A stretch of DNA of 35,967 bases from Candidatus Gastranaerophilales bacterium (GTDB taxonomy: Bacteria > Cyanobacteriota > Vampirovibrionia > Gastranaerophilales > Gastranaerophilaceae): the NCBI GenBank assembly GCA_905235825.1, contig CAJONH010000040.1, positions 1-35,967 on the forward strand, read 5' to 3'. A program made the position numbers and the translations under genes. The notes under the pieces are model-generated. The model was not told the DNA's origin and did no database searches. It saw only the letters and a program-made list of their open reading frames with translations. Each line of letters starts with the position of its first letter. Position 1 is the first letter of the stretch. Of this stretch, positions 2,554-28,414 are shown in pieces.

Positions 2554-3558
2554 CTATTGTGCCGGAGGCTGATTTTGTTGTTCAACAGGCTCTTGTTCTT
2601 GAGGCTGCTCCTGCTTTTCATTTAATGCTTCTAATTCAGGTTGAATTGATCTAAATTCGGCAGCTAATGCTTTTTCATTACCTGTAAATGTCAATTTCTT
2701 TTCAAATGCAGCCGAAAGATTTTTTAAATATCCTTCTCTGTTTTCGGTTTGTTTATATATTTCAGCTAAAAGATAATATAAATCAGCTTCATCCGGCATT
2801 GTTTGGAGTGCTGATTGTAAATGATGTTCTGCTTTTTCATATTGATTTTGTTTACAAAGTAATTTTACAAGCATTTTTAATGCTTTTATATCACTCGGAT
2901 TTGTTTTAACAGTACTGTTTAAGCACATAATAGCTCTATGCTCATCTCCCTGTTCCGTGTATATTGCAGCTAAATTGTAGTATGCCCAGCTGTAATCGGG
3001 ACTCTGGCTTATAACCTGATCATACAAGCTGATTGCATCATCTATATATCCTGCTTCTTTGCATTGGTATGCCAAATAAAATTTTGCTATTGCATCATTA
3101 TTATCAAGCTGGACGGCTCTCGAAAGATATTTAATTGCATTTTGGGTATCTTTTTTTCTTGTATAAATTTCACCTAAATGAAAAAACGAGTTTTCATCTT
3201 CTTCGTCTGTTTCAACTACCTTTAAAAGCAGCTGCTCTGCTTCATCATGCCTGTTTGCTTTTATAAGTACAATAGCGAGATTATACATAAAATCGGTATC
3301 TTCACTATCTAATTCATGGGCTTTTTCGTAGGCTAAAATTGCATCATCATTCATTTTTAGTTTTTCTAAAATAATTCCGATATTATAATAATTCATGGCA
3401 TTATCGGGAAATTGATTTTTTAAGAAGACAAAATTTTTAAGAGCTTCTTGATTTTCTCCCATATCGGAAAGTGCCATGGCATAAGACTCTATTGCCTCAT
3501 AATCCTCCGGATTAGCTTCTATTCGTTGTTTTAGTGCAGTGATTTCGTCAGCATTCAT
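2554..3558 (-). CDS. Tetratricopeptide-repeat protein with a Q/E/P-rich C-terminal tail
   Basis: Repeated 34-aa A/Y/L-patterned units (e.g. AIKYLSRAVQLDNNDAIAKFYLAYQCKEAG, WAYYNLAAIYTEQGDEHRAI). The tail reads EQPQEQEPVEQQNQPPAQ. There is no signal peptide. Confidence 0.8.
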   Translation of the reverse strand: MNADEITALKQRIEANPEDYEAIESYAMALSDMGENQEALKNFVFLKNQFPDNAMNYYNIGIILEKLKMNDDAILAYEKAHELDSEDTDFMYNLAIVLIKANRHDEAEQLLLKVVETDEEDENSFFHLGEIYTRKKDTQNAIKYLSRAVQLDNNDAIAKFYLAYQCKEAGYIDDAISLYDQVISQSPDYSWAYYNLAAIYTEQGDEHRAIMCLNSTVKTNPSDIKALKMLVKLLCKQNQYEKAEHHLQSALQTMPDEADLYYLLAEIYKQTENREGYLKNLSAAFEKKLTFTGNEKALAAEFRSIQPELEALNEKQEQPQEQEPVEQQNQPPAQ

Positions 3559-3567
3559 TTTATGCCT

Positions 3568-4434
3568 CTATTCTTCTAATATTATTTGTTTAATTGCAAA
3601 AGGAAGGTAATCTATAATATCCGTAGCCATAACGCAATATTTTGTTAAATCGACAGAAGCAATATCACCGGATAATCCGTGTAAATATGTTCCTATAATT
3701 GCCGAATCAAACGGAGATAGTTTTTGTGCCAGTAATCCTGCTATTATTCCCGTCAATACATCTCCCGAACCGGCTTTCGCAAGAGCAGAAGAACCTGAAC
3801 AGTTGACAAACACCTTACTGCCGTTTGTAACTATACTGTTATGACCTTTTAAAACAGTTATACATTCATAAGTTTGTGAAGTTATACGTGCATATTTTTC
3901 TCTATTTGCCATTATTTCATCCGTATCAACTCCTAAAAGCCTTGAAAGTTCTTTCGGATGAGGTGTTATAACCGTATTTTTTAATGATATAACTTCTTTT
4001 TTTGATGCAAGAATATTTATTCCGTCTGCATCCAAAACAACATTGTGCATTGAACTTCTTTTTGTAAGCAAATTAAAAACAAAATCTCTTGTTTCTTCCG
4101 TATTTGTAATACCGCATCCTATTTCAAGAACATTGTATTTGCTTAAATCGCCCAAATCATTATCCGATGATATTGCCCCATTTTTGGATTTCAATCTCTT
4201 ATAGGTTATTTCGGGAGCCAAGGATGCAATGGCATTAACAATTTCATCCGGACAAGCAAGTGTCAAATATCCTGCACCTGCTTTTAAAGCCGCTATAGAC
4301 GACAAATAAGCAGCCCCGATATAATTCAATGAACCTGCAATATTTAAAATTCTGCCAAAAGTAGCTTTGTTTGATTCTTCGGGTCTTAACGGCATTTTGC
4401 CGAAAACAAGTTTTTTGTCTATATTTTTATGCAT
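3568..4434 (-). CDS. nnrD: ADP-dependent (S)-NAD(P)H-hydrate dehydratase (YjeF C-terminal / carbohydrate kinase family)
   Basis: VLKGHNSIV...GSSALAKAGSGDVLTGIIAGLLAQ matches the YjeF_C/Nnr2 signature. Its start overlaps the trmL stop by 8 nt. Confidence 0.85.
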   Translation of the reverse strand: MHKNIDKKLVFGKMPLRPEESNKATFGRILNIAGSLNYIGAAYLSSIAALKAGAGYLTLACPDEIVNAIASLAPEITYKRLKSKNGAISSDNDLGDLSKYNVLEIGCGITNTEETRDFVFNLLTKRSSMHNVVLDADGINILASKKEVISLKNTVITPHPKELSRLLGVDTDEIMANREKYARITSQTYECITVLKGHNSIVTNGSKVFVNCSGSSALAKAGSGDVLTGIIAGLLAQKLSPFDSAIIGTYLHGLSGDIASVDLTKYCVMATDIIDYLPFAIKQIILEE

Positions 4435-5526: not shown

Positions 5527-6528
5527 TTATTGTTTTTTACTTCTGGATAACGCAAAATCAACATTATCCAAAGATTTTACTTTATCTCCAAGCATTATTT
5601 TTTCAGCTTCTTCCAAGACCTTTACGACATTAAATCCGTTATGTCCGTCGCTTCTTGCCTGTTTTCCCTGCTCTATGCAGGTTAAGAAGTGCTGGCATTC
5701 CAGTTTTAAAGGTTCAATTTCAATATAATCCAAAACCTCTGTTTTAGAAATTTTAGGAGAAGAACTTTCAAAAATTTGAAGTTTATTCTCTGTTAAAGTA
5801 TCATCAAATATTGCTGTGGCTTTAGTTCCACGAACGAGCAAATTAACTCTTTTAACCGGATGTATCCAGCTGTCGGATATATGAGCAATAATTCCGTCTT
5901 CATATTCTATTGTTACATGTGTTATATCCATAATATCGTTATTATCACTTGAAGCACCGACAGCACTGATTACTCTGACAGGTTCTTTACCGAGAATATA
6001 GCTTGTCATGGAAACATCGTGCGGTGCCAAATCCCACATAACGCTTCTGTCGTTTTTAAAGTGATTAATATTTAATCTGTCGCTTTGAACATATCGTATA
6101 TTACCCAGTACTCCTTCATTTATAAGCATTTTTAAACGATTTACCGCCGGATGATACATTAAAAGATGTCCAACCATAAGTACCATATTATTTTTATTCG
6201 CAATGTCTGTCAGAGCTTTTGCTTCTGCTGAAACGGTTGAAATAGGTTTTTCCACATAAACATGCTTGCCTGCTTCTATTGCTTTTCTTACTATTTTATA
6301 GTGAGTATGACTTGGTGTTACAACAGCAACTGCATCAATTTCAGGATTTGCAAGTACTTCATCCGAATTAGCAATGATATTGATATCAGGATACTGTAAT
6401 TTTAAATTTTTTCTGTTTTCTTCATCTAAATCGCAGACTGTATGAAGTGCATCCAAATTATAAAAATTTCTTACAACATTCTTTCCCCAGATTCCGCAGC
6501 CTATAACTGCAACCTTATGTGTTCTCAT
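5527..6528 (-). CDS. Gfo/Idh/MocA family NAD(P)-dependent oxidoreductase
   Basis: N-terminal Rossmann motif KVAVIGCGIWGKN. HVYVEKP (EKP motif) and the downstream alpha/beta domain are typical of the family. 333 aa. Confidence 0.8.
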   Translation of the reverse strand: MRTHKVAVIGCGIWGKNVVRNFYNLDALHTVCDLDEENRKNLKLQYPDINIIANSDEVLANPEIDAVAVVTPSHTHYKIVRKAIEAGKHVYVEKPISTVSAEAKALTDIANKNNMVLMVGHLLMYHPAVNRLKMLINEGVLGNIRYVQSDRLNINHFKNDRSVMWDLAPHDVSMTSYILGKEPVRVISAVGASSDNNDIMDITHVTIEYEDGIIAHISDSWIHPVKRVNLLVRGTKATAIFDDTLTENKLQIFESSSPKISKTEVLDYIEIEPLKLECQHFLTCIEQGKQARSDGHNGFNVVKVLEEAEKIMLGDKVKSLDNVDFALSRSKKQ

Positions 6529-6691: not shown

Positions 6692-7096
6692 TTAAGCATA
6701 TAAATTTTTTGCAAGTAATTTTTGTGTATTATCTTTACCCATAATGTCAAAATGGTCTTTGCCGTATGCATCTTTGGTTCTTACCGCAAAAAGTTTATCA
6801 GAGAACAGAGAATGAACTTCCGTTTCTTTTATGCCGTCTTTTATTGTTGCACCTACAAATTTTGCAGATTCATTATTATCTGTTATAGCCATCAATGCCT
6901 TGTTTATATTTGCCTGTGCCGTTTCGGGGCTGACCGTATCAAGGCTTGATGTTTTTATTATAGGAGAAGAAATAACATTTTTACTGTAATTACCATCAGG
7001 TTTAATTTTATGTATTACACAGGTATAATTCTCTCCGGTTGCTTTACCTGTTTTAATACTCTCTTGAAATAAGAAACCAACAGCAGAAACTTTCAT
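6692..7096 (-). CDS. Hypothetical 134-aa soluble protein (orphan, monocistronic)
   Basis: Intact ORF with AAAGG ~9 nt upstream of the ATG. It has its own promoter-like element and terminator. I recognised no signal peptide, TM segment or family motif. Confidence 0.6.
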   Translation of the reverse strand: MKVSAVGFLFQESIKTGKATGENYTCVIHKIKPDGNYSKNVISSPIIKTSSLDTVSPETAQANINKALMAITDNNESAKFVGATIKDGIKETEVHSLFSDKLFAVRTKDAYGKDHFDIMGKDNTQKLLAKNLYA

Positions 7097-7212
7097 AACA
7101 CTTACCTTTCTTGGAACAAACAGACGTGAACTTCATTTTGTGCATATTTTTAGCACTCTTGCAGATTTCCCTTGTATCCTTCGTACCCGCCTGCCGCACC
7201 TTATCTTTCCAC
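7097..7212 (-). promoter_or_regulatory. Long GC/purine-rich 5' leader of the 134-aa gene (candidate cis-regulatory RNA, class unknown)
   Basis: The minus strand reads GGTGCGGCAGGCGGGTACGAAGGATACAAGGGAAATCTGCAAGAGTGCTAAAAATATGCAC. Possible helices are GTGC/GCAC and GCAG/CTGC. Hand count for 7151-7200 is ~56% G+C, against a ~30% background. Confidence 0.3.
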
Positions 7213-7218
7213 ATTTTT

Positions 7219-7247
7219 ATAATAACTCTTTAAATGTTATTTGTCCA
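7219..7247 (-). promoter_or_regulatory. Sigma70-type promoter for the 134-aa gene
   Basis: The minus strand reads TGGACA (7247-7242), a 17-nt spacer, then TATTAT (7224-7219). Confidence 0.45.
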
Positions 7248-7254
7248 GTGAATT

Positions 7255-7418
7255 TTTGTAAAAAATTCGATTTTTGAAGTCTTTTTTTGCAAAATCATAA
7301 TTTTTTTTATTCATTTTTAGTTTTTTTTAATAAAAAATTTAAAATTTGTAAAAAATACACTTAATTTTTGCAATTTTATCAATTTTTTGCTTGATTTTAC
7401 TCCAAAAAATTGTAAAAT
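7255..7418. repeat. Array of six TTTGYAA-type motifs in an extremely AT-rich spacer
   Basis: TTTGTAAAAAAT occurs at 7255 and 7345 (exact 12-mers). TTTGCAAAAT is at 7287, TTTGCAATTTT at 7367, TTTGCTTGATTTT at 7387 and ATTGTAAAAT at 7409. The last four are spaced ~20-22 bp apart. Confidence 0.4.
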
Positions 7419-7504
7419 AGATAAAATATATTTTCTTTTTATCTAATTTAATGATAAAAAAGATATATTTTTTATTTTGTTTATTATTTAAAAAGCTAAA
7501 AATT

Positions 7505-10129
7505 TTATAAAATACTTTTCATTTCAACATTAAGATCATTTTTATTTATGTTGCCTTTTAGTTTTACTCTGAAAGCGCTGATATCTTCTTCTTGATTTTT
7601 TTCAATGTTTGGCACAGATTTTAATTCATTTTTGTATTTATCTTTTGTTTTTTCCGGTCGAAAGAGTATTTTTATTACAAAAGAAAGGGGTACGTGAAAT
7701 ATTTTAATTTTAGATATTTTTTTATTATTATATTTTCCGAATAGGTGTATATCTGCATTTTGATATTCGGTGTCATAATCACCTTTAATTAATAAAGATA
7801 AATATTTTTGAGAAGATGTTATGTGTGCATTTTTTATTTTCCCGTTGTAAGAATCAAATGAACCGTTAATATCGGAAGCGAGTGCTTTCATATTTTTTAC
7901 GTCAATATTTACGGCATCTTGAAGTGTAAAGTTTTTTTTCTTTAATTTTGCATGTTTAAACATAAATTCGGTACTGCCTAATTTTGGCAAATAACCTTGT
8001 TTAATGGTAAAATCGATATGACTTATTTTATCATCTATTCCGTTTTTCGTTTTTGTTTTTAATACAGCATTTGCGGTTCCTTGAATTTGGTCTGTCAAAT
8101 TAAAAAGACCTTCCGCTACTATATTAGAATCAATATTTTTAGCTGAAAATAAAACATCCGAAGTTCTTTTATTAAAGTTATAATTTCCTTTTGCACAGAG
8201 TATTCCTTTTGCATAATCTGCGTGAGGCACATCAAAATTAAAAATATTATCTTTTATGCTGCCTGTAAGCAATATATTTATTATAATCGCATTTTTATAG
8301 TGTAATTTATTAAGTTTTACCTTATATAAATCAATGTCAAAATTATCGCTTTGTGATTTGATTGTTTTTTCATCAAATTTAATCCTGTTTGATGTTTTTT
8401 TATTTTTAGGAATAACTAAATTATCTAAAAATAAATATAAATCATAAATATGAATTTTATTGTTAAAATCATTTAAGCCTGATATATGTGCATTAAAAGG
8501 TGATTTCTTATAATCTCCGTTCACGTTTATGTTAACGATTGAATTATCTGCATTTATCATTGCTTCATGTATTTTATAGTCTTTATATACGGAATTTTTA
8601 ACATTAAAAGTTCCCGTAATTATATTTTTATGAAAATCATATTTTAGATTACCTTTAAAAACACCGCCTTCAAGATATTTATAAAATGATGCCGCAACTG
8701 AAACAGGAGCTTCATTTTCTGTTTTACAGGTAATATATGAAGGTGTAAAGTGCCCGTTTTGTTTTTTAAATAATCCTTTCCCCATTATAATCTTTTGAAT
8801 ATTGTCTTTATCTTTTATTAAATATTCATAATTTGTTATTTCGAGGTTGTCTTCATATTTTATTGTTTTAACTGTTATTTCACGCTCTTTATCTTTTAAG
8901 CCCAAATATGCATCCATATAATATATGTCAGAGTCTTTAGGTATTCTTATCAGGTATGTTATGTCAATTTTTTTATCTTGTATATGCCAATTAACAACAG
9001 TTTCGGTTTTTCCCGTTATTAATGCATTCGGAACATATTTACCAGCCGATTTATTCGTAAGAACGGATTGGACTGTTCCTTTTGTTTCTCTGTGTATTGA
9101 TGATATATTTGAAACCATAAAATCGGCATAGACTTTCTCCCCTCCAAGAATTCCGAAGGCACCTCCTGAAACTTCTTTTCCGTTGAATTTTACGGGAACA
9201 CTTTCAAAAATAATCGGAACATCAAATAATACGGACTTACCCGATAATTTATTTATATTACATTCTCCCGTTATGCCGTTATTTGTAACTCTCAAATCAG
9301 TCTTTAATTTACCTGAATAATCATAAAAGTTTTCCATAAACTTTTTTTCTTTATTATTTAATTTTTGAAAATATAATAAAGAAGCTGCAACATCAGATAT
9401 CGGAATATCTTCACCTCTTAATGTAAAATCATATTTATTTCTTTTATCGGTAAGTTTGCCGTTTATTTTCAAACTTGATACTCCGATTAAAATTTCTAAA
9501 TTATCAGCATATAGTTTATTATTTTCAATATAAATATATCCGTTTCTTCCTGCGTGAATTAAATTTCTGAATAATTTAGAAATTATTTCAGCCTGAAATG
9601 TACATTTTATTTTGCCGTTTTCATGTATAATATACACATTGTCAATATTTATAAACAGACTGTTTATATCTCCCTTATCTATCCAAATTTCCACATTTTT
9701 AACAGATAAAACAGGTAATTTTTCAGGTCTAAATGTCGAGTCTTTTTTATGTTTTGCCGTTTCAGCCGCATTTTTTATGTTCTGTTGATTTAAATATATA
9801 TAATCCGCATCAATTTTTTCTGCTTTTAATTTTTTTAAATCGTAAAACAATGATGCATTTTTTACTTTTAATAACTCATTTTTTTGCGATGTTAAAGTGA
9901 ATTTATCTACGAATATATTTACACAAAGAGAAGGATATGTTTTTACGTTAATATTTTCGGAATTTACGATAATGCCTGTCTTTTTTTCGATAATGGCATC
10001 AACTTTTTTTAAAAATTTCGGTGAACTCAATATTTGAGGCACTACCGTTAAAAATAATATATACAATATTACTGACAATATAAACGAAACAACTGATAAC
10101 TTTATGAGTATGTTTTTTATCTTTTTCAT
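7505..10129 (-). CDS. Large envelope protein with an N-terminal membrane anchor, AsmA/TamB-like (tentative); start moved to MKKIKNIL
   Basis: A single N-terminal TM (ILIKLSVVSFILSVILYILFLTVV) is followed by ~840 aa of beta-rich, N/K/G-rich sequence with recurrent (I/V)NG..K strand-like patterns, as in AsmA-family proteins. The ATG at 10127-10129 sits 1 nt after the dgkA stop. Confidence 0.5.
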   Translation of the reverse strand: MKKIKNILIKLSVVSFILSVILYILFLTVVPQILSSPKFLKKVDAIIEKKTGIIVNSENINVKTYPSLCVNIFVDKFTLTSQKNELLKVKNASLFYDLKKLKAEKIDADYIYLNQQNIKNAAETAKHKKDSTFRPEKLPVLSVKNVEIWIDKGDINSLFINIDNVYIIHENGKIKCTFQAEIISKLFRNLIHAGRNGYIYIENNKLYADNLEILIGVSSLKINGKLTDKRNKYDFTLRGEDIPISDVAASLLYFQKLNNKEKKFMENFYDYSGKLKTDLRVTNNGITGECNINKLSGKSVLFDVPIIFESVPVKFNGKEVSGGAFGILGGEKVYADFMVSNISSIHRETKGTVQSVLTNKSAGKYVPNALITGKTETVVNWHIQDKKIDITYLIRIPKDSDIYYMDAYLGLKDKEREITVKTIKYEDNLEITNYEYLIKDKDNIQKIIMGKGLFKKQNGHFTPSYITCKTENEAPVSVAASFYKYLEGGVFKGNLKYDFHKNIITGTFNVKNSVYKDYKIHEAMINADNSIVNINVNGDYKKSPFNAHISGLNDFNNKIHIYDLYLFLDNLVIPKNKKTSNRIKFDEKTIKSQSDNFDIDLYKVKLNKLHYKNAIIINILLTGSIKDNIFNFDVPHADYAKGILCAKGNYNFNKRTSDVLFSAKNIDSNIVAEGLFNLTDQIQGTANAVLKTKTKNGIDDKISHIDFTIKQGYLPKLGSTEFMFKHAKLKKKNFTLQDAVNIDVKNMKALASDINGSFDSYNGKIKNAHITSSQKYLSLLIKGDYDTEYQNADIHLFGKYNNKKISKIKIFHVPLSFVIKILFRPEKTKDKYKNELKSVPNIEKNQEEDISAFRVKLKGNINKNDLNVEMKSIL

Positions 10130-10130
10130 T

Positions 10131-10529
10131 TTATGCCGCACCAATAAATGCATCAGGATGTAATTTTAAAATATAACTTCCGAACAATATTGCTCCGAGT
10201 ATAAAACTTATAATGCAGGATAATAAAACCATGCCTGCAGATATATCTTTTGCCATTTCTACCAGTCTTGAATAATTATTTTTATAAACGGCATCCAAAG
10301 TAAATTCAATAACTGAATTTAATAATTCACAAATAAGTACCATCGAAGACATTATGATTAAAATACATATATCCGTAACCGTAAATTTTAGAATAAACCC
10401 TGAAATTACAACACATAGGGATATTATAATTTCAATTACAAAATTTCTTTGAGAAAAAAATGCAAGTTTTAGTCCGTGGATTGCATTTGTAAGACTCTGT
10501 ATAACTCCCTCTGACTTAAATTTGGTCAT
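10131..10529 (-). CDS. dgkA: Diacylglycerol / undecaprenol kinase (DgkA family)
   Basis: 132 aa with 3 TM segments. ELLNSVIEFTLDAV and AKDISAGMVLL match the DgkA signatures. It has an ATGA-type 4-nt overlap with ybeY. Confidence 0.8.
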   Translation of the reverse strand: MTKFKSEGVIQSLTNAIHGLKLAFFSQRNFVIEIIISLCVVISGFILKFTVTDICILIIMSSMVLICELLNSVIEFTLDAVYKNNYSRLVEMAKDISAGMVLLSCIISFILGAILFGSYILKLHPDAFIGAA

Positions 10530-11026
10530 AACACTATTGCCTTTGCTCTGTTTTGATGTTCAACCATAAAATTATAATCCTCCTGAGTTTGATGATCGAA
10601 CCCCAGAAGATGTAGTATTCCGTGTGAAATTATATAATACAATTCATCTCTAAAAGATACATTATTTTCATCAGCCTGAGTTTCTATTTTATCGAGCGAT
10701 ACAATAATTTCGCCAAGATTAATCTCGCCGTCTAAAATATAGCGTTCATTTTCGGGAGAATCGGCAAAAATAGCAAAAGTTATAACATCTGTTGGTTTAT
10801 CTTTATTTCTGTATTCGTTGTTAATATTTTGAATTTCTTCATTATTAACAAATACTATATCAAATGATACTGTTTTATATGTATATTCCGCTAAACAAGA
10901 CTTAGACAGTAAATTTGCATCATCAAATATAAAATCAGCAATTTTTATTACGTCATTATATACTGATACTTCATCAATTTCATAATTTTGATAAGTGTTT
11001 TCAATAAAGATATTAAGTTTTGTCAT
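10526..11026 (-). CDS. ybeY: rRNA maturation endoribonuclease YbeY
   Basis: Carries the zinc-binding motif HGILHLLGFDH. 166 aa. It occupies the conserved position between pgpH and dgkA. Confidence 0.9.
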   Translation of the reverse strand: MTKLNIFIENTYQNYEIDEVSVYNDVIKIADFIFDDANLLSKSCLAEYTYKTVSFDIVFVNNEEIQNINNEYRNKDKPTDVITFAIFADSPENERYILDGEINLGEIIVSLDKIETQADENNVSFRDELYYIISHGILHLLGFDHQTQEDYNFMVEHQNRAKAIVL

Positions 11027-13145
11027 CCTGTTCCTGTTTCAATTTTTCTGTTTCTTTATTTTTAATATCTTCAATCGTTTCCTGATATTTAATACGTTTA
11101 TGGAATACGCTTCTTAGAACCCTTGATAAAGTTGCAGCAATAATTTTTATATCCTTTAGCGTTAAAGGACTTTCATCCAGCTGATTATCGTTTAATATGT
11201 CTTTAATAATTTTATTTATTAAGGCATCAAGTTCTTCCTGTGTATGATCTTTTAGAGTTCTTGATGCAGCTTCAACAGCATCGGCAATCATAAGGATAGC
11301 TGTTTCTTTTGAATTCGGTTTCGGGCCTGTATATCGGAATTGTTCTTCCTGAACATTTGCCGCACCTTCCTGTGCTACAGCCTGATTATAAAAGTAACTT
11401 GTAAGAGAATCTCCGTGGTGACGGGCAATAAACTCCTGTATAGCTTCCGGAATATGATATTCTTTTGCTAAAGCTACACCGTCTTTTGTGTGAGATGTAA
11501 TAACCATTTTGCTTGAACGGGGTGTTAACTTATCATGCGGATTTTCTATTCCTGTATAAGTTTGATTTTCTACGAAAAATAAAGGACGAACCATTTTTCC
11601 TACATCGTGGTATAAAGCCCCGACTCTTGCCAGTATAGGATCGGCTCCGATTGCTTCTGCCGCTGTTTCAGCTAAATTTGAAACTCTCAAACTGTGTTCA
11701 AATGTACCCGGAGCCGTTTCGTGCAATCGTCTTAATAAAGGCTGATTATAATCGCCCAGTTCGGCTAAACCGAAGGCTGTAATAACTTTAAATGTATTTT
11801 CAATAACAGGAATCATGCCGAGTGCAAATATCCCCGAAATTATACCGTTTACGACACCGGCTGTAATATCCTTACTCAACCTGTCGAAACCTAAGTCGTA
11901 GTATACGCATAAGATAACAACAGCCATTGCTATTGATGTATATGCACCTACTTTGATTAATCCAAATCTTCTTGAGTATCTTACACCGTTCATACCAACA
12001 ATAGATATCACAACAGATAACAAAAATACGGACATGGCTAATGCCGAAAATTGCAGAGATAACGTAATTATGGCAAGTATTGTAACCGTAATGAAGAATG
12101 AACTTCTCGGATTAAGAAAGACAGACAGCATTATTGAAAAGAACGGAATCGGAAGTGCAAATACCGACCATTTATCGGGCAAAAGCACCGACATCAATGC
12201 AATTAAAATGCATAATGATGCAACTATCGAAAGGTGCCGCCTGTTTAAAAGTTTTGGTTCAAAAAATTTCAAGTAAAATATAACAGAAAATATTCCAATT
12301 CCTACAAGACATAATATACATAATATTCCGGCATAATTTATTCTCAGAATATTATATCCCGAACTTAAAAGAGCTTCTCTTTTAACCTGAGTAATTAATT
12401 CGCCTTCATTAACTATAACCTGACCTTTTTTAAATGATATCATTACAGGCTTTACTTTATCTCTTTCATTCTTTTTTGCAAGTTCCGTTGCTTCTTCATC
12501 AACTATCATGTTTGAAATTATTACATTTTCCAATAGAGCTGCTATAACTTCAGCGTGACTGTTTGATATAGAAACATCAATATTTTTCCTTATGATTTTT
12601 GCAATGCCGTTTGTATTGTCTTCAAAGTCTTTTTCTGTAATACCTTCATCCAATATGGATTTTAAAGTTTTTTGTGCCAAATGGAAAACTTTTTTTATTT
12701 CTTCTTCATTTGCCGTTGTAATAAATGAAAATATAACAGGATTTGATAAAAAGTCGGATATTTCAACGAATGTATCATCTATATCTTTATTTCTATTTTT
12801 ATCATCTTTAATTTCATGTCTTTTTTTGTTTAATGTTTTTAAAATTTCATTTAAGTTATTTTTTATATATATATCGTCTGCCAAAATATACACGGGAGAA
12901 ACATTATTTGCCGCATCTCTTTTGCATTTCTCTGTTTTAACAGAATCTGTTACTTTTATGTCCTTCGTTGCCGTAAATGTGCTTTTACTCGTATAATCAT
13001 CATTTATAATTGATTGGAAAAAGAAATATTTTGAAACTAATATGCCCGTAAGTATAATTGCAAATAAAAAAATAAAACCGATATTTGCCAAAACTTTCGG
13101 AGATTTTAATTCCTGTATTTTATTAATTATATCAGCTTTTTTCAT
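11013..13145 (-). CDS. pgpH: 7TM-HD membrane phosphohydrolase (PgpH/YqfF family, putative cyclic-di-AMP phosphodiesterase)
   Basis: An extracellular N-domain is followed by 7 TM segments and a C-terminal HD domain (FEHSLRVSNL...LYHDVGK...HHGDS). 710 aa. It overlaps ybeY by 14 nt. Confidence 0.8.
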   Translation of the reverse strand: MKKADIINKIQELKSPKVLANIGFIFLFAIILTGILVSKYFFFQSIINDDYTSKSTFTATKDIKVTDSVKTEKCKRDAANNVSPVYILADDIYIKNNLNEILKTLNKKRHEIKDDKNRNKDIDDTFVEISDFLSNPVIFSFITTANEEEIKKVFHLAQKTLKSILDEGITEKDFEDNTNGIAKIIRKNIDVSISNSHAEVIAALLENVIISNMIVDEEATELAKKNERDKVKPVMISFKKGQVIVNEGELITQVKREALLSSGYNILRINYAGILCILCLVGIGIFSVIFYLKFFEPKLLNRRHLSIVASLCILIALMSVLLPDKWSVFALPIPFFSIMLSVFLNPRSSFFITVTILAIITLSLQFSALAMSVFLLSVVISIVGMNGVRYSRRFGLIKVGAYTSIAMAVVILCVYYDLGFDRLSKDITAGVVNGIISGIFALGMIPVIENTFKVITAFGLAELGDYNQPLLRRLHETAPGTFEHSLRVSNLAETAAEAIGADPILARVGALYHDVGKMVRPLFFVENQTYTGIENPHDKLTPRSSKMVITSHTKDGVALAKEYHIPEAIQEFIARHHGDSLTSYFYNQAVAQEGAANVQEEQFRYTGPKPNSKETAILMIADAVEAASRTLKDHTQEELDALINKIIKDILNDNQLDESPLTLKDIKIIAATLSRVLRSVFHKRIKYQETIEDIKNKETEKLKQEQDDKT

Positions 13146-13247
13146 GATACCCCTAGTCTTATAAATTATTTATCCTTCTATTTTACAACAACTCACAATT
13201 TTTGCAATGTTATAACATTTTACTTAATTAGTGTGGATATTTACTGG

Positions 13248-13469
13248 AGTGTGTTCACACTATCAATAGTGTTCCAATGAAGTAAATACAAATAAACGGC
13301 CCCTTGACGAAAATATTTAAAAATTCTTAGTGAAACAACAGCAAGTCGTCGTCTGTCTGAGTGAAGCGAGTTAAGACGACTTAGGTTGAACTTAGAATTT
13401 TAATATTAGAGGAAGCAGGGCAGTGTTTTGTATTTATTTCGACAAGATATGAATAGTGTGTTCACACTC
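13248..13469 (+). ncRNA. Candidate structured ncRNA: a ~222-nt extended imperfect hairpin (possibly 6S-like; strand tentative)
   Basis: Nested complementary segments run as follows. 13248-13264 pairs with 13453-13469 (15/17). TAAATACAAA 13283-13292 pairs with TTTGTATTTA 13427-13436. GCCC 13299-13302 pairs with GGGC 13418-13421. AAAATTCTTAG 13320-13330 pairs with CTTAGAATTTT 13391-13401. CAAC 13336-13339 pairs with GTTG 13385-13388. AAGTCGTC 13343-13350 pairs with GACGACTT 13375-13382. Local G+C is ~48% over 13341-13390 by hand count. No ORF is present. Confidence 0.4.
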
Positions 13470-13534
13470 TAAATAATAAAATTGAAAATAAAAAAATATT
13501 ACTTAATTTTCCCGAATTAGTATGGGACTTGCAC

Positions 13535-13542
13535 TGTATAAT
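13535..13542 (+). promoter_or_regulatory. Putative -10 element (TG-TATAAT) for the glycan-modification operon
   Basis: A perfect TATAAT at 13537-13542 is immediately preceded by TG, 38 nt upstream of the ATG at 13580. No good -35 element is present. Confidence 0.35.
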
Positions 13543-13579
13543 TCTTTAAAGTAAAATAGTTTCGGGAATAATAGTAATT

Positions 13580-14731
13580 ATGATTTCTGATAATATTTCA
13601 AAAAAGTTTATTTCTGAAGCTGAAAAAATATATGTTACTCAGCCGCTTTTACCTGAGTTAAAGGATGTTTTTTCCGAAATTGCCGATATTTGGCAATCGA
13701 AATGGATAACAAATATGGGAGTAAAACATAATGAGCTTGAAATTGTTCTTAAAAATATTTTAAAAGTTCCTTATGGTTCACTTTTTAACAATGGTACTAT
13801 CGCTCTGTTAACGGCAGTTAAAGCAATGGACTTTCATTCAGGTGGTGAAATTATTACTACGCCTTTTACTTTCGCTGCTACTCCGCACTGTATTTCTTGG
13901 AATGGTCTTAAACCTGTATTTTGTGATATAGAACCTGATACACTAACAATTGATGCCGATAAAATAGAAGACTATATTACACCTAATACGGTTGCTATTT
14001 TAGGGGTTCATGTTTATGGTTTTCCCTGTAATGTCGAAAAAATTGACAGAATAGCAAAAAAATACAATTTAAAAGTTATTTACGACGGGGCACACGCTTT
14101 TTCTACAGAAATAAACGGAAAAGGAATTGGTACTTATGGCGACATTACGATGTTCTCTTTTCATGCAACAAAGTTGTTTAATACGCTTGAAGGCGGTTAT
14201 TTATCCTATAATTCACCGGAACTTGTAAAAAAAATTTATAATCTTAGAAATTTCGGCATCCAAAATGAAGAATTGGTTGAAGACATCGGAATTAATGGTA
14301 AAATGAATGAAATTCAAGCCGCAATCGGTCTTTTGAATTTAAAATTATATAAAAAAGAACAGGAAAAACGTAAAAAAGTTAAAGCTCTCTATGATGAAAA
14401 TTTATTTGGAATAAAAGGTATAAGAATACCTAAAATGCCTGATAATACAACTAATTCTTATCAATATTATCCGATAATAATTGAAAATGATTATCCTTTA
14501 ACTCGTAATGAAATTTATGATAATTTCAAAAAAATGAATATTTATACAAGAAAATATTTTTATCCTGCTTGTCATGACTATGAATGTTATAAGAACGATT
14601 TATCTGTTAAACTTGCTAATCTTAAAGTAGTTAATGATATTAAACATAAAGTCTTGTGTCTGCCCTATTATGGAGATTTAGAAACAGAAAATATTATTAA
14701 AATTTGCAAGGTTCTAAAAAATGCAAGATGA
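13580..14731 (+). CDS. DegT/DnrJ/EryC1/StrS family PLP-dependent sugar aminotransferase
   Basis: YGFPCN...VIYDGAHAF...GDITMFSFHATKLFNTLEGG carries the PLP-lysine motif of the family. 383 aa. Confidence 0.85.
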   Translation: MISDNISKKFISEAEKIYVTQPLLPELKDVFSEIADIWQSKWITNMGVKHNELEIVLKNILKVPYGSLFNNGTIALLTAVKAMDFHSGGEIITTPFTFAATPHCISWNGLKPVFCDIEPDTLTIDADKIEDYITPNTVAILGVHVYGFPCNVEKIDRIAKKYNLKVIYDGAHAFSTEINGKGIGTYGDITMFSFHATKLFNTLEGGYLSYNSPELVKKIYNLRNFGIQNEELVEDIGINGKMNEIQAAIGLLNLKLYKKEQEKRKKVKALYDENLFGIKGIRIPKMPDNTTNSYQYYPIIIENDYPLTRNEIYDNFKKMNIYTRKYFYPACHDYECYKNDLSVKLANLKVVNDIKHKVLCLPYYGDLETENIIKICKVLKNAR

Positions 14732-22078: not shown

Positions 22079-23557
22079 ATGTATATTACAACTTCTCAAT
22101 GTGTTTCATATAAAAATGATTCACTCATAAGTCCGCAGGTAAACGATAATATAAAAAAACATAACAGCAATTCTTTTAACAATGATTTATTTATACCCCA
22201 AAATAATAATTCCAAACAAGTGTCATTTAACGGAATATTTAGTTTCGTATCAAAAATTCTGGGTTTTGATGGGCCTAAACTTCCGGATGATACCGATCCG
22301 TCATTATCATTGCATGAAAAGTTATCTATAGGAGTTAAAAAAGAATGGGATGAAGATATTCCACCTGAAAAATTTAAAGGTATTATGAGTCCTGCTAAGC
22401 TAAAAGCACATCTTAAAAATCTAACAACCGAAAACTTTATTTGTACCGAAGAAAATAAGGACAACTGTATTTATAATACAGATTTGGATTGTATTACAAC
22501 TTTTTCTTATAACGGAAGGGAATGTATTCAAGATATTCTTGACGAAGTTGCAAAATATGCAAATTATTATAAAAAGAAAACAGGTAAAAATTTTGTTCTT
22601 GCTTTTACCGATAATGATTCAATTGAGGGCTTAAAACATGCCGTAAGACGTGTAGCTAATAATAACGATAGATATAAAAATATAGACTTTGTTCCGGGCA
22701 TGAAAATATCTTTTATATATAAAGTGTCTGATAAAAGGTGTGAAAACGGCAAATTGCTTGTATACGGCGTAAACCCTTTTTCTGATAATGTTAATGATTT
22801 TGTTCTGAATACTTTGGCACGCAGACAGGATATGATTGTTGATTTTATTTCAGGTGCAGCTGAACTATACAGAGATGCTCATTTTACTGAACATGAATTC
22901 TATTCGAATAATAATATGTATTTTTCAAAAGATTTGGGTCAATCCAATTTATATAGTAAAATTCGTGAATACATGATGTCTAAAAGAGATAAAGATCTTC
23001 TAGGTTTACAAATACCGCCCGATGAAATTTATAAATTATCGGAAGGTATATTCTCAAGTATGGATACTATTTTTAACGGTTCTAACGATTTTGAAAATTT
23101 TTGTATACTGATTGCCGGTAGTAAAGAAAATGCAAATTCCTTCGTTAACAAGGTACTTGATAAATATTCTACCCGGTATGACCCTGAAACCAATGAAATA
23201 TTTTCTGCCTCTGAAAATATATATTCTGATTTTATAAATTGTATGAAGCTGGAAACACCGAGGCCGATTATGGCTTTATCTGCTCCTTATTATTTATCGC
23301 ATCATTTTGAACATTCAGGCGACAAAATATTTCCTAATGTTGTAAATTTTATGAAAAGTCTGCAAAAATATTCGGCAGGCATGCTTCTGGGATTTGAATC
23401 GGCTTCACCTGCTTACGATTTGGATAAAGAGCTGACAGCTAACAAAGATGCACTATATAATTTTAATACTTATATAAAAGAAAATACCAATTTACAAGAA
23501 GTGGGCGGCAGTTTTGTAACCAGAAATATTATAAACTTACCTGTTGATGTTGACTAG
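22079..23557 (+). CDS. TrpH/YciV-like PHP-domain protein with degenerate metal-binding motifs, plus a ~130-aa N-terminal extension
   Basis: The order and spacing of the PHP motifs are conserved, but the ligand residues are replaced. DLHxHT becomes TDLDCITTFSYNG. AxTDHD becomes LAFTDND. PGxE becomes VPGMKIS. AHP becomes LSAPYY. GGSDxH becomes VGGSFV. Confidence 0.6.
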   Translation: MYITTSQCVSYKNDSLISPQVNDNIKKHNSNSFNNDLFIPQNNNSKQVSFNGIFSFVSKILGFDGPKLPDDTDPSLSLHEKLSIGVKKEWDEDIPPEKFKGIMSPAKLKAHLKNLTTENFICTEENKDNCIYNTDLDCITTFSYNGRECIQDILDEVAKYANYYKKKTGKNFVLAFTDNDSIEGLKHAVRRVANNNDRYKNIDFVPGMKISFIYKVSDKRCENGKLLVYGVNPFSDNVNDFVLNTLARRQDMIVDFISGAAELYRDAHFTEHEFYSNNNMYFSKDLGQSNLYSKIREYMMSKRDKDLLGLQIPPDEIYKLSEGIFSSMDTIFNGSNDFENFCILIAGSKENANSFVNKVLDKYSTRYDPETNEIFSASENIYSDFINCMKLETPRPIMALSAPYYLSHHFEHSGDKIFPNVVNFMKSLQKYSAGMLLGFESASPAYDLDKELTANKDALYNFNTYIKENTNLQEVGGSFVTRNIINLPVDVD

Positions 23558-26029: not shown

Positions 26030-28414
26030 TTACAAAGAATGATTAATTATTCTGTTATAAAATTTAACATCAGGTGATTTTATATTAATATCCGATATTA
26101 TTTTTATTTCCTCTAATTTGTTATTTAAAAGCCATGAAGGAAAATTATCCAATGGAATAAGTATTTTTCCTGATTTTGATTTACATTTAATTTTTGACTG
26201 TGAACCGTTTATTGAAATAGTAAAGTCTGACGGAGATTTTTTTTCATTTGTATTAAAAAATAATAAATCTGTATTTTCAATTTTTTGAGGTTCTGTAAAT
26301 CTGATTTTAATTTCGTTTCCGAATATTTCAACTGAATAATTTGTTATTATTTCTGTTACAGGTAATGTTTTTAATGAAGCTGCCCATGCTTCGGGTAAAA
26401 ATTTAAGATTTTTTGCACCGAAATAATAATCTAAATCTTTTAATTGTTCATTTGTAAATATTGATTTATTATTTGTTTTAACCAAAAAAACATTATTCCC
26501 CGATTTTTCGTATTTATATTTTTGTTTTAGGAAAATCCATCGGTATAGTCCGTTTATGCGAAGTGAAGGAAATACATTATCATGAAGAATGTTATTTGAA
26601 TATACGAGTATAATATCGGGTATTTTGTTTCGCAGCCGCTCAACGGTATCAACGGATTGTTTAGAAGATACAATATTATAAAAAGATGTGTATTGTATTG
26701 GTATTTCCTTATTTAAATATAAATAGTGCATACCTCTGTTTGTTAAATCCAAGAATATTGTATTTTCGCCTTTTTCTTCTATATAATTTTTTATTTCAGT
26801 TAAGCGTTTTTCTTCAGCAATATCTATATTTATATTTCCGACATTATATAATTGAGTATTATTTTTTATATCAGATTTTTCCATTTTCTTTATTTTATCC
26901 GGCAGTTTATAAAATAGAGAAAATGGCATCATTATGCAAAGTATTAATATTAATATTTTTTCTGCCTTTAATTTTTGTTTTATATCGGCATATTTATAAA
27001 ACCAATACGGCATAATTGTACATAAAAAAGTAAATGAAATATATTCCATACGTAAAAAATGCCCGTTATCCAATCTTCCCATGGTATATGGCAGAGATAC
27101 AAAAACAAAAAGCAGAGAAAATACGGTGAAAAAAACACTGCTTATATCTTTTGATTTATTTTTAAATTGTTTTATTGCCTCCAATATAACAATAGGTGTA
27201 AAAAAGAGAGCAAACATTTTATAACACCATTCAAATGCTGTTTGAGAAGGCATTTTACTTTCTATATACTTAAAGTCATTTCCAAATGATGCTAAATTTC
27301 CTTCTATATAATATTTCGCAATATTTAAATATTCAAAAAAACTGTTTCTGAATATTATTGAAAGCATTAAAATAAATATTCCCGCTGACCAAAAATTAAG
27401 TTTTTTATTTGGAAGTTTTATACATATATAAATGAATGCGGGTAATGATGCTATAATCCAAAAACTTCCGATTGTTGTCCAATAACTTGCAAACCCGATT
27501 GAAAAGATAATATAAAACCAAAACCAAAATACGGGCTTTTTTATCATTTTTTCTTGTATTAATGAAATATAAACGCAAACAGCCATTGTACCGGCCGATG
27601 GAACTTTTAACAAAAAAAGGGGGATTGTATATAAAATATTGTTATTAAATATTAATAAGGTTAAAAGAGTTGTAATTATAAAAATCAAATTTCTGTGAAG
27701 AGCTTCGCCCAAACAATACCCGTATATATTGTTCCCGTTAAAGAAAAAATTGCCGAGCCATGCCGATGTTACATCGCATCTTCCGTGTACAAGCATTATA
27801 TCTTTGTAATATTCAAGATTAAAATTATTATGCATTAAATATGCACAGAATTTTTCACCGAAATGATGATCGTCAACAGGGGCAGTTCCCGTTGTATATG
27901 ATGTGAAAAATAATATGAAAAATAATGCACATATCGAAAACGGAGAAAATCCCTTATCATTTTTATTATTTATATATATGCTTATAATGGAAAGAATTAT
28001 TAACAGAACAGTCAAAACAATTATTTTAGGATATATTTCTCCGTTAAAAGGATGTAAAAATATATAACCGAATACAATTAAGTATTGCAGTTTTTTTAGC
28101 TTTGGTAAAAAACTTTTTATTTTTTCAACTGCTTCATTATTCTGTTGTTTTTCTTTGTTTGAGTTGAAAAATTTATTTGTAACAGTAGAAATTAACGGTA
28201 AAATACAAAAAAATATAATCAGATAAATGAAATAAATATAAATATCCAAATATTTGTTGTGATTATTGTATATTGATACTCCGACAAAAAAATCTTTTAA
28301 AGAATGCCATTGCACATTATCATACAAAAAATTATATATAATGATTGTAAGAAAAAGACTTATTAATGTAGTTATAAATATATCCCAAAATCTGATTTTT
28401 AAACTGATTTTCAT
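26030..28414 (-). CDS. Large polytopic membrane protein (~15 TM) with a ~270-aa C-terminal soluble domain; function unknown (GT-C / polymerase-like architecture)
   Basis: Hydrophobic segments run through residues ~10-510 and are followed by a polar beta-rich C-terminal domain. I recognised no catalytic motif. Confidence 0.55.
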   Translation of the reverse strand: MKISLKIRFWDIFITTLISLFLTIIIYNFLYDNVQWHSLKDFFVGVSIYNNHNKYLDIYIYFIYLIIFFCILPLISTVTNKFFNSNKEKQQNNEAVEKIKSFLPKLKKLQYLIVFGYIFLHPFNGEIYPKIIVLTVLLIILSIISIYINNKNDKGFSPFSICALFFILFFTSYTTGTAPVDDHHFGEKFCAYLMHNNFNLEYYKDIMLVHGRCDVTSAWLGNFFFNGNNIYGYCLGEALHRNLIFIITTLLTLLIFNNNILYTIPLFLLKVPSAGTMAVCVYISLIQEKMIKKPVFWFWFYIIFSIGFASYWTTIGSFWIIASLPAFIYICIKLPNKKLNFWSAGIFILMLSIIFRNSFFEYLNIAKYYIEGNLASFGNDFKYIESKMPSQTAFEWCYKMFALFFTPIVILEAIKQFKNKSKDISSVFFTVFSLLFVFVSLPYTMGRLDNGHFLRMEYISFTFLCTIMPYWFYKYADIKQKLKAEKILILILCIMMPFSLFYKLPDKIKKMEKSDIKNNTQLYNVGNINIDIAEEKRLTEIKNYIEEKGENTIFLDLTNRGMHYLYLNKEIPIQYTSFYNIVSSKQSVDTVERLRNKIPDIILVYSNNILHDNVFPSLRINGLYRWIFLKQKYKYEKSGNNVFLVKTNNKSIFTNEQLKDLDYYFGAKNLKFLPEAWAASLKTLPVTEIITNYSVEIFGNEIKIRFTEPQKIENTDLLFFNTNEKKSPSDFTISINGSQSKIKCKSKSGKILIPLDNFPSWLLNNKLEEIKIISDINIKSPDVKFYNRIINHSL

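Follow-up and report, generated by a model that had tools for sequence, protein, structure and literature searches.

The window, i.e., the whole 35,967-nt stretch of DNA that was analyzed, contains the divergently transcribed genes pgpH and degT, separated by a spacer that harbors a long hairpin. The flanking proteins have their best relatives in Gastranaerophilales/Melainabacteria genomes from animal-gut metagenomes. The degT gene opens a polysaccharide operon, further members of which encode a GT2/methyltransferase and a pyruvyl transferase. Outside the hairpin, the locus has the following features.

11013-13145, − strand: pgpH, encoding a 7TM-HD phosphohydrolase
13146-13579: spacer between pgpH and degT, 434 bp
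13180-13207, − strand: pgpH promoter, TTGCAA, 16-nt spacer, TAAAAT (promoter scan); not part of the element
13537-13542, + strand: perfect TATAAT, putative degT −10 hexamer, outside the hairpin and 38 nt upstream of the degT start codon (read from the sequence)
13580-14731, + strand: degT, encoding a DegT-family aminotransferase, first gene of its operon

The only open reading frame of at least 30 aa in the spacer is 13042-13164 (+), which overlaps the pgpH start. Both the size of this gap between divergent operons and its GC island at 13341-13390, as given by an earlier note on this DNA, are confirmed by measurement: the spacer is 434 bp long and the island has a GC content of 0.48, compared with 0.31 for the whole window and 0.23 for those parts of the spacer that lie beyond the element. 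The pgpH promoter lies 30 nt from the hairpin and outside it, and its sequence block is kept upstream of pgpH in the related loci L085, L087, and L088, with or without a hairpin. On the other side, TATAAT would serve as a promoter element of degT; the consensus promoter scan omits it on account of a weak −35. The hairpin is thus placed between two separate promoters and is part of neither. Since the spacer is identical across contigs from two independent samples, an assembly artifact is ruled out.

Several further observations were made in the surroundings. Direct repeats of approximately 20 nt lie directly outside the hairpin region in the window (13206-13236 and 13495-13525, TTACTTAATT..AGTrTGG) and flank that of L085 (about 3471-3491 and 3915-3936, TATGAACCnnCACATAAC), the sequences being unlike each other. 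To the left of the hairpin, TGTGGATAT (13232-13240) agrees with the DnaA-box consensus TGTGGATAA at 8 of 9 positions; it occurs once and is probably due to chance. Open reading frames of the window without a Pfam match are 7505-10153 (−, 882 aa), 26030-28414 (−, 794 aa), 22079-23557 (+, 492 aa), and 6692-7096 (−, 134 aa). The 882-aa frame is kept downstream of the pgpH-ybeY-dgkA cluster in L085. The 408-bp spacer at 7097-7504 is very AT-rich and has no strong hairpin; its L085 counterpart measures 106 bp, and the next gene there encodes a histidine kinase and is not found at this position in the window.

The hairpin consists of a core, designated type A, between two arms.

13238-13268: outermost inverted repeat, left; 31 nt, 74% complementary to 13448-13478 (repeat search)
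13247-13298: left arm, including the 17-mer 13247-13263 and the 14-nt block 13279-13292 (repeat search, outward extension from the core)
13299-13421, + strand: type-A core, conserved and asymmetric, ~123 nt (model R2 match and minimum-free-energy fold)
13299-13302/13418-13421, + strand: core helix P1
13312-13317/13402-13407, + strand: core helix P2
13320-13327/13394-13401, + strand: core helix P3
13329-13331/13390-13392, + strand: core helix P4
13336-13339/13385-13388, + strand: core helix P5
13343-13350/13375-13382, + strand: core helix P6
13351-13374: apical loop of the core
13422-13469: right arm, inverted-repeat partner of the left arm, including the 17-mer 13453-13469 and the block 13427-13440
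13448-13478: outermost inverted repeat, right (repeat search)

The terminal 17-mers, GAGTGTGTTCACACTAT (13247-13263) and ATAGTGTGTTCACACTC (13453-13469), pair at 15 of 17 positions. A perfect 10-bp helix (13283-13292/13427-13436), 93% complementary when lengthened to 14 nt, is followed inward by GCCC/GGGC (13299-13302/13418-13421), CAAC/GTTG (13336-13339/13385-13388), and the apical stem AAGTCGTC/GACGACTT (13343-13350/13375-13382), which closes a 24-nt loop. All of these helices had been listed in the earlier note and are present in the sequence as well as in the RNAfold minimum-free-energy (MFE) structure. Where they were described as enclosing a large central bubble, the MFE structure has an internal loop of roughly 9x10 nt that contains a few weak pairs and is smaller than the bubble of 6S RNA. 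The 5′ strand of this loop is conserved across the type-A family. The arms, extended outward from the core, measure 52 and 48 nt with several mismatches and indels, and toward the core they show homology to the arms of the L085 ortholog. The 14-mer AGTGTGTTCACACT occurs twice in the window (0.06 expected), each time at a hairpin end. A resemblance of CUGUUUGAG...CGAAGAAAC to core motifs of the hammerhead ribozyme was rejected, as CUGANGA lacks its invariant A and none of the ribozyme models gives a match.

On both strands, the element folds far better than the shuffled controls called for by the earlier note. The + strand folds with an MFE of −69.5 kcal/mol, compared with −42.9 ± 3.8 kcal/mol for shuffled sequences (z = −7.0; none of 200 shuffles is as good), and the − strand with −62.4 kcal/mol (z = −6.5). 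Both strands thus fold nearly equally well, as a DNA palindrome would.

Searches against known families return nothing of the kind. At the gathering score, neither the window nor 96 kb of related loci contains a match to any Rfam family. When the threshold is relaxed to E ≤ 10 for 13100-13620, the output comprises three chance hits (E ≥ 1.5) and neither 6S RNA (RF00013), the earlier note's suggestion, nor anything 6S-like. The L217 hairpins at E ≤ 10 give chance hits and sub-threshold plant miRNA-precursor hits, the latter reflecting any long hairpin. BLASTN with the spacer finds no copy elsewhere in the window or in 80 degT-related loci; degT moves between lineages, and a degT-based contig scan yielded no syntenic spacers. 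The element has no BLASTN match among plasmids and phages, and viral contigs scanned with three patterns give chance matches or none. A parent insertion sequence with matching ends was not found in about 130 kb of clade loci, and genes for a recombinase, transposase, or reverse transcriptase are absent from the window, where the genes are ordinary housekeeping ones, and from the positions adjoining the other copies. A literature search on 6S RNA, invertons, and repeat elements of Melainabacteria found nothing relevant.

Further members of the family were discovered by scanning a metagenome collection with a degenerate pattern derived from the block common to the window and L085. Apart from about 100 chance matches, two real ones were obtained, both on contig JAAGKN010000278.1, which comes from a related genome whose GC content is 31% and whose histidine kinase is 83% identical to the L085 protein. 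By way of the neighboring genes, orthologous loci were then located that hold two copies, 5 kb apart, on JGI contig L246 and a truncated copy in the sister species L248, the fifth genome. Full cores of ~123 nt number six, in four related Gastranaerophilales genomes.

Full copy 1: window
Full copy 2: L085
Full copy 3: L176 (= L247 10671-10855)
Full copy 4: L217
Full copy 5: L246 9692-9818
Full copy 6: L246 14753-14880

A covariance model, R1, whose training set included the window, scores the six full copies at 54-121 bits (window, 103 bits) and finds no further hits in 516 kb, including 16 other Gastranaerophilales/Campylobacter-labeled loci and 45 loci from other phyla. A second model, R2, was trained on four copies from two other genomes, with the window and L085 left out. 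R2 recovers the window at full length (13299-13423, +; 55.8 bits, E = 2.3e-11) as its only match there, as well as L085 3680-3828 (+; 50.3 bits), with nothing further in 103 kb. The sample of copies is biased, in that four loci were fetched because they hold one.

The copies occupy non-orthologous sites of four kinds, being located upstream of either pgpH or a TrbI-like gene, downstream of a DUF1796 gene, or in the gap that separates an SMC-like gene from rplR. The cores of L176 and L217 are 98.6% identical over 69 nt, and their arms are unrelated. The equivalent spacers of pgpH relatives, to which the earlier note had pointed as a source of evidence, give a divided answer. L085 has a homologous hairpin, but in relatives at 70-78% identity the spacer upstream of pgpH measures only 66-156 bp and gives no hit with the models; the models likewise find nothing in the 202 bp lying upstream of pgpH on the contig of L088, a 74% relative. 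Synteny thus allows compensatory changes to be read in L085 and no further. The core is therefore dispersed at non-orthologous intergenic sites and missing from the equivalent spacer of more distant relatives, and these six copies at four kinds of sites, absent from the relatives' pgpH spacers, are what is expected of a MITE. The near-identical copies that the earlier note associated with a mobile repeat are matched only loosely: there are multiple copies elsewhere, but they are diverged and reside in related genomes, with no second one in the 36-kb window.

In every copy, the arms pair over 15-55 nt, and they are unrelated in sequence between loci. Near-perfect pairing is seen in L217 (45 bp; z = −16.8) and L176, whereas the window arms are worn. 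Direct repeats that would indicate a target-site duplication do not abut the arms in any of the six copies. In L217, the right arm contains TAAATTTC.C.TTTTTGAAAA, a block that comprises sequence upstream of the TrbI-like gene's promoter along with its −35 element. L245 and L246 each have this block once; the left arm of L217 thus repeats host sequence in inverted form. As another proof of a host-derived arm, the C-terminus of the DUF1796 protein was considered and dropped, since 12 nt are weak evidence.

The orientation of the hairpin can be compared at two orthologous sites. L085 comes from a close relative (PgpH 89% identical), and its 531-bp spacer likewise forms a long hairpin (z = −9). 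The window (+) and L085 (+) hairpins match with a score of 85, compared with 37 for the opposite strand. The pgpH genes lie on opposite strands in the two loci, and the promoter was aligned collinearly. Thus, the hairpin is inverted relative to pgpH between the two species. At the second site, L248 matches the reverse complement of L247 with a score of 98, compared with 50 for the other strand; the two are collinear over 20 kb, with DUF1796 proteins 80% identical. Sister species therefore carry the hairpin in opposite orientations at both comparable orthologous sites, as expected if the arms recombine with each other. In the window, the outermost repeat (13238-13268/13448-13478) is where recombination probably took place to reverse the hairpin with respect to pgpH, and the same-strand asymmetry shared with L085 suggests an inversion boundary outside the inner arms.

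Hairpins outside the type-A family add two informative comparisons. The hairpins L247 11888-12003 and L248 12340-12677, located in an orthologous spacer, have homologous arms that are near-perfect within each species and different between them, and what the arms enclose is not the same in the two species. Arm growth into host DNA (L217) and concerted arms (this pair) have each been shown once. A filled/empty pair is found between convergent phosphoribosyltransferase and dnaA genes, where L248 has a 93-nt hairpin with 42-nt arms (5604-5696) and L247 has a 7-nt spacer (5711-5717). Here, arms and core are present or absent together, and the arms do not derive from the local flanks, a pattern that counts against any simple rule for the origin of the arms.

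Additional observations concern the hairpins of related loci, the density of which reaches eight per 21 kb, including two type-A copies. Type B has the core ATCTTCAACCGGTGTTTTT-loop-AAAAACAATGGTyTCAGAT, with conserved mismatches and variable outer arms. Its six copies in 21 kb (L246 4424-4531, 6163-6285, 6273-6378, 7931-8034, 9853-9935, and 14634-14715) are mostly placed between convergent genes, like bidirectional terminators. Type C has the core GAAGTCCATTGATTTTAGGTATCGCGAAATCACAGGAC and near-perfect, locus-specific arms of 38-46 nt (L217 149-314, 239-368, and 6964-7095; L247 11888-12003 and 20513-20627); in L217, one type-C copy adjoins the type-A copy at a distance of 4 nt. Neither type B nor type C is found in the window. 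Extra sequence is present in the apical loop of two type-A copies, L176 (about 152-218, − strand, ~65 nt) and L085 (about 3735-3780, ~45 nt), and hairpins nested within hairpins are seen at L248 12340-12677 and 10779-11285. The hairpin apex appears to be a preferred site of further insertions.

Hairpin spacers also coincide with breaks in gene order, both around pgpH (window, L085, L087, L140, and L141) and in the TrbI/GatB region (L217, L245, and L246). No two of these pgpH loci share the same upstream gene (degT, PHP, PTPS, AsmA-like, or NeuB), and the position and orientation of GatB vary among the three close relatives L217, L245, and L246. Contigs end in or beside hairpins: L086 starts at the apex of an L085-type hairpin, and L245 stops 86 nt upstream of the TrbI-like gene. 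This suggests that the palindromes break assemblies.

The type-A core is an imperfect palindrome of 123 nt with conserved mismatches. Folded independently, the six cores show the same order of P1-P6 and the same asymmetric loops, AUUGCrnAG, CGAAgAAACAG, and CUGUyUGAG..GCGAGUU. Covariation, the lack of which the earlier note would have counted against an RNA, is present. In a model-fitted alignment, pairing is kept in 79% of cells. Compensatory changes on both sides are seen in 22 of 36 pairs, a number reached by none of 500 shuffles; when partners are slid by 1-3 columns, 3-9 remain. These numbers come from a small sample and from an alignment that was itself fitted to the structure. Five different sequences occur in the apical helix, each with its complement (GTCGTC, ACGCGTG, GTGCGCA, AGAC..GCA, and TCAGGGCTTCGT). 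Covariation is not by itself evidence for an RNA, since the arms of an inverted repeat can recombine. Moreover, G-T cells (6) do not exceed A-C cells (10), and there is thus no pointer to one transcribed strand.

Sequence conservation was compared between the window and L085. The core halves are 76-79% identical and the inner arms 68%, while four-fold sites of pgpH are 44% identical (n = 227), near saturation, and the remainder of the spacer is unalignable except for the promoter. With its core far above four-fold-site identity, the window copy is not simply decaying or drifting freely. The excess could reflect constraint, related either to the element's own spread or to the host, or conversion from other copies.

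Taken together, the hairpin is probably one copy of a dispersed, non-coding palindromic DNA repeat family of the MITE/REPIN kind, known so far from a small clade of Gastranaerophilales, which are gut-dwelling relatives of cyanobacteria, rather than an RNA gene. A MITE-like palindromic repeat was one of three suggestions in the earlier note and comes closest. The window copy is best read as single, old, and partly decayed, and the element most likely acts at the DNA level. The absence of terminal repeats common to the copies, of a target-site duplication, and of a partner transposase at the loci counts against this assignment, as do the small sample of six copies and the conservation of the window and L085 copies above neighboring neutral sites. 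Mechanistically, the arms would recombine and undergo gene conversion, such that the segment flips and the arms stay matched, while the boundary of the repeat would creep into flanking DNA. Conversion between arms may explain at least part of the compensatory changes without an RNA. The cores may reach new sites by means of a trans-acting enzyme or by recombination, and any effect on the neighbors (a cruciform, insulation, or termination of stray transcripts) would be incidental.

An alternative, to which a minor share of the probability is given, is that the family represents a multi-copy structured RNA or a single-stranded nucleic-acid element with a host function, in which the conserved loops would be the functional part. 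Such an element could be a protein-binding module or a processing, termination, or stabilizing module, transcribed from a neighboring gene or its own promoter. One architecture kept in six copies with 22 of 36 pairs covarying is consistent with this, as are the conserved asymmetric loops. Conservation of orthologous copies far above four-fold sites is the main reason to retain it. In addition, the core + orientation folds better than its complement by 9.5 kcal/mol (window, full hairpin) and 12.3 kcal/mol (L085, inner hairpin), and in most copies, read in this orientation, the 5′ arm is A-rich and the 3′ arm T-rich, as in a terminator. However, the orientation flips relative to the flanking genes between sister species at both comparable sites, such that read-through transcripts would be of opposite strands. 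There is no conserved promoter inside the core: T is missing from position 6 of the candidate −10 hexamers, and the TTAAGA-16-TAGAAT of the window is not conserved. Near-perfect, locus-specific arms of up to 55 nt are also unlike known RNA genes, G-U pairs are not in excess over A-C, and Rfam offers no match in the window or 96 kb of related loci. The dedicated structured non-coding RNA favored by the earlier note is at odds with a core that is present in multiple copies within genomes, at unrelated loci, and in an orientation to its neighbors that varies between sister species.

An invertible regulatory switch (inverton), in which the segment would flip within populations and alter expression of the degT operon or pgpH, is improbable. 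The segment is flanked by the outer inverted repeats 13238-13268/13448-13478, lies upstream of a polysaccharide operon (DegT aminotransferase, GT2, pyruvyl transferase), has opposite orientations in sister species at both comparable sites, and contains a promoter-like TTAAGA-16-TAGAAT (13371-13398) directed at degT. Nevertheless, this promoter-like sequence is not conserved among the other cores, both neighbors have promoter elements of their own outside the hairpin, and the window has no recombinase gene. The repeats vary by locus, unlike dedicated invertase sites, and other copies follow gene ends, where a promoter switch would be senseless. A single orientation is seen in the contigs of two samples, a comparison at the contig level that is compatible with a minority orientation.

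The earlier note also raised the possibility of paired operator sites, in which a dimeric regulator of the divergent promoters would bind AGTGTG-TT-CACACT twice, 207 bp apart. Each 14-mer is nearly palindromic and found only here in the window, and the two are identical as direct repeats. This proposal leaves unexplained both the nested complementarity of the intervening 190 nt and the homologous cores elsewhere; the 14-mer is missing from the other family members, whose outer arms are unrelated, and motif pairs were not found in viral contigs or related loci. It is accordingly very improbable.

A 6S RNA gene, i.e., one regulatory RNA that ties up RNA polymerase by imitating an open promoter, is effectively refuted: the rod-like fold of about 200 nt, its internal loop flanked by G-C pairs, and the suggested resemblance of CCCCUUGACGAAAAUAUUU to the bubble strand of E. 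coli 6S are outweighed by the lack of an RF00013 or 6S-like match even at E ≤ 10, by multiple copies per genome (two on L246, 5 kb apart, and two on JAAGKN010000278.1) where one or rarely two dedicated genes are expected, by the locus-specific arms, by absence upstream of pgpH in relatives, and by an internal loop that is small and partly paired in the MFE structure.

A dispersed palindromic repeat can be compared with several known systems. Like the REP, BIME, and REPIN elements of proteobacteria, which are mobilized by RAYT transposases, the family is non-coding, intergenic, and multi-copy, and consists of imperfect palindromes with conserved mismatches and long hairpins. It also shares with them a long persistence at orthologous sites and a frequent position at gene ends and in gaps of convergent gene pairs. 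In contrast, REP units of 20-40 nt and REPINs of about 100 nt are conserved over their full length, whereas only the central ~123 nt are common to type-A copies and the arms are locus-specific. REP and REPIN elements have a RAYT partner and tens to hundreds of copies; here, no RAYT gene or GTAG-type motif is found at the level of the window and the loci.

MITEs, such as Correia/NEMIS in Neisseria, RUP in Streptococcus, and Nezha in cyanobacteria, are likewise small, non-coding, and dispersed between genes, form long hairpins, and are present or absent among relatives. A classical MITE has common terminal inverted repeats and a target-site duplication, neither of which is found for type A, in which the center is conserved and not the ends. 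Like 6S RNA (RF00013), the hairpin forms a rod of about 200 nt that contains an internal loop; it differs in having no covariance-model match, multiple copies, locus-specific arms, and variable orientation and location. Invertons, e.g., those of Bacteroides capsule loci, resemble the element in having ~200 bp between inverted repeats, a location upstream of a polysaccharide operon, and an orientation that varies among close relatives. Unlike them, type A has no conserved internal promoter, nearby recombinase, or common recombinase site, and its interior is itself palindromic.

Large inverted repeats, of which the plastid IR is an example, undergo expansion, contraction, and concerted evolution. 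The "ebb and flow" of the plastid IR is similar to what is seen here, in that the arms are alike yet diverge between lineages, the boundary moves, and the segment flips. The plastid IR spans kilobases, whereas the type-A arms comprise tens of bases in bacterial spacers, where such a mechanism is putative.

A further, speculative extension of the repeat interpretation, itself unlikely, is that the type-A core is the seed of an undescribed mobile hairpin, in which a protein-recognized center inserts between genes and then builds or occupies a palindrome, or, in view of its conservation above neutral sites, that it is a core with a host function. The arms of the mobile hairpin would take up neighboring host sequence, including promoters; gene conversion would keep them matched, and they would flip the center. 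Spacers and gene order in Gastranaerophilales would be remodeled in this way. No prior description of such elements was found for Melainabacteria, and Rfam contains nothing alike.

For this uncultured phylum, a false candidate for 6S RNA has been removed. The spacers of the clade instead hold several families of long hairpins with a conserved center and locus-specific arms, unlike classical MITEs and REPINs. As these hairpins coincide with gene-order changes and contig breaks, they matter for assembling and annotating Melainabacteria genomes. In addition, they are a natural example of hairpin covariation that does not necessarily imply an RNA, as the two arms of an inverted repeat can evolve in concert. 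If the cores turn out to move by a new route or to serve the host, the family would be of higher interest and would deserve experiments.
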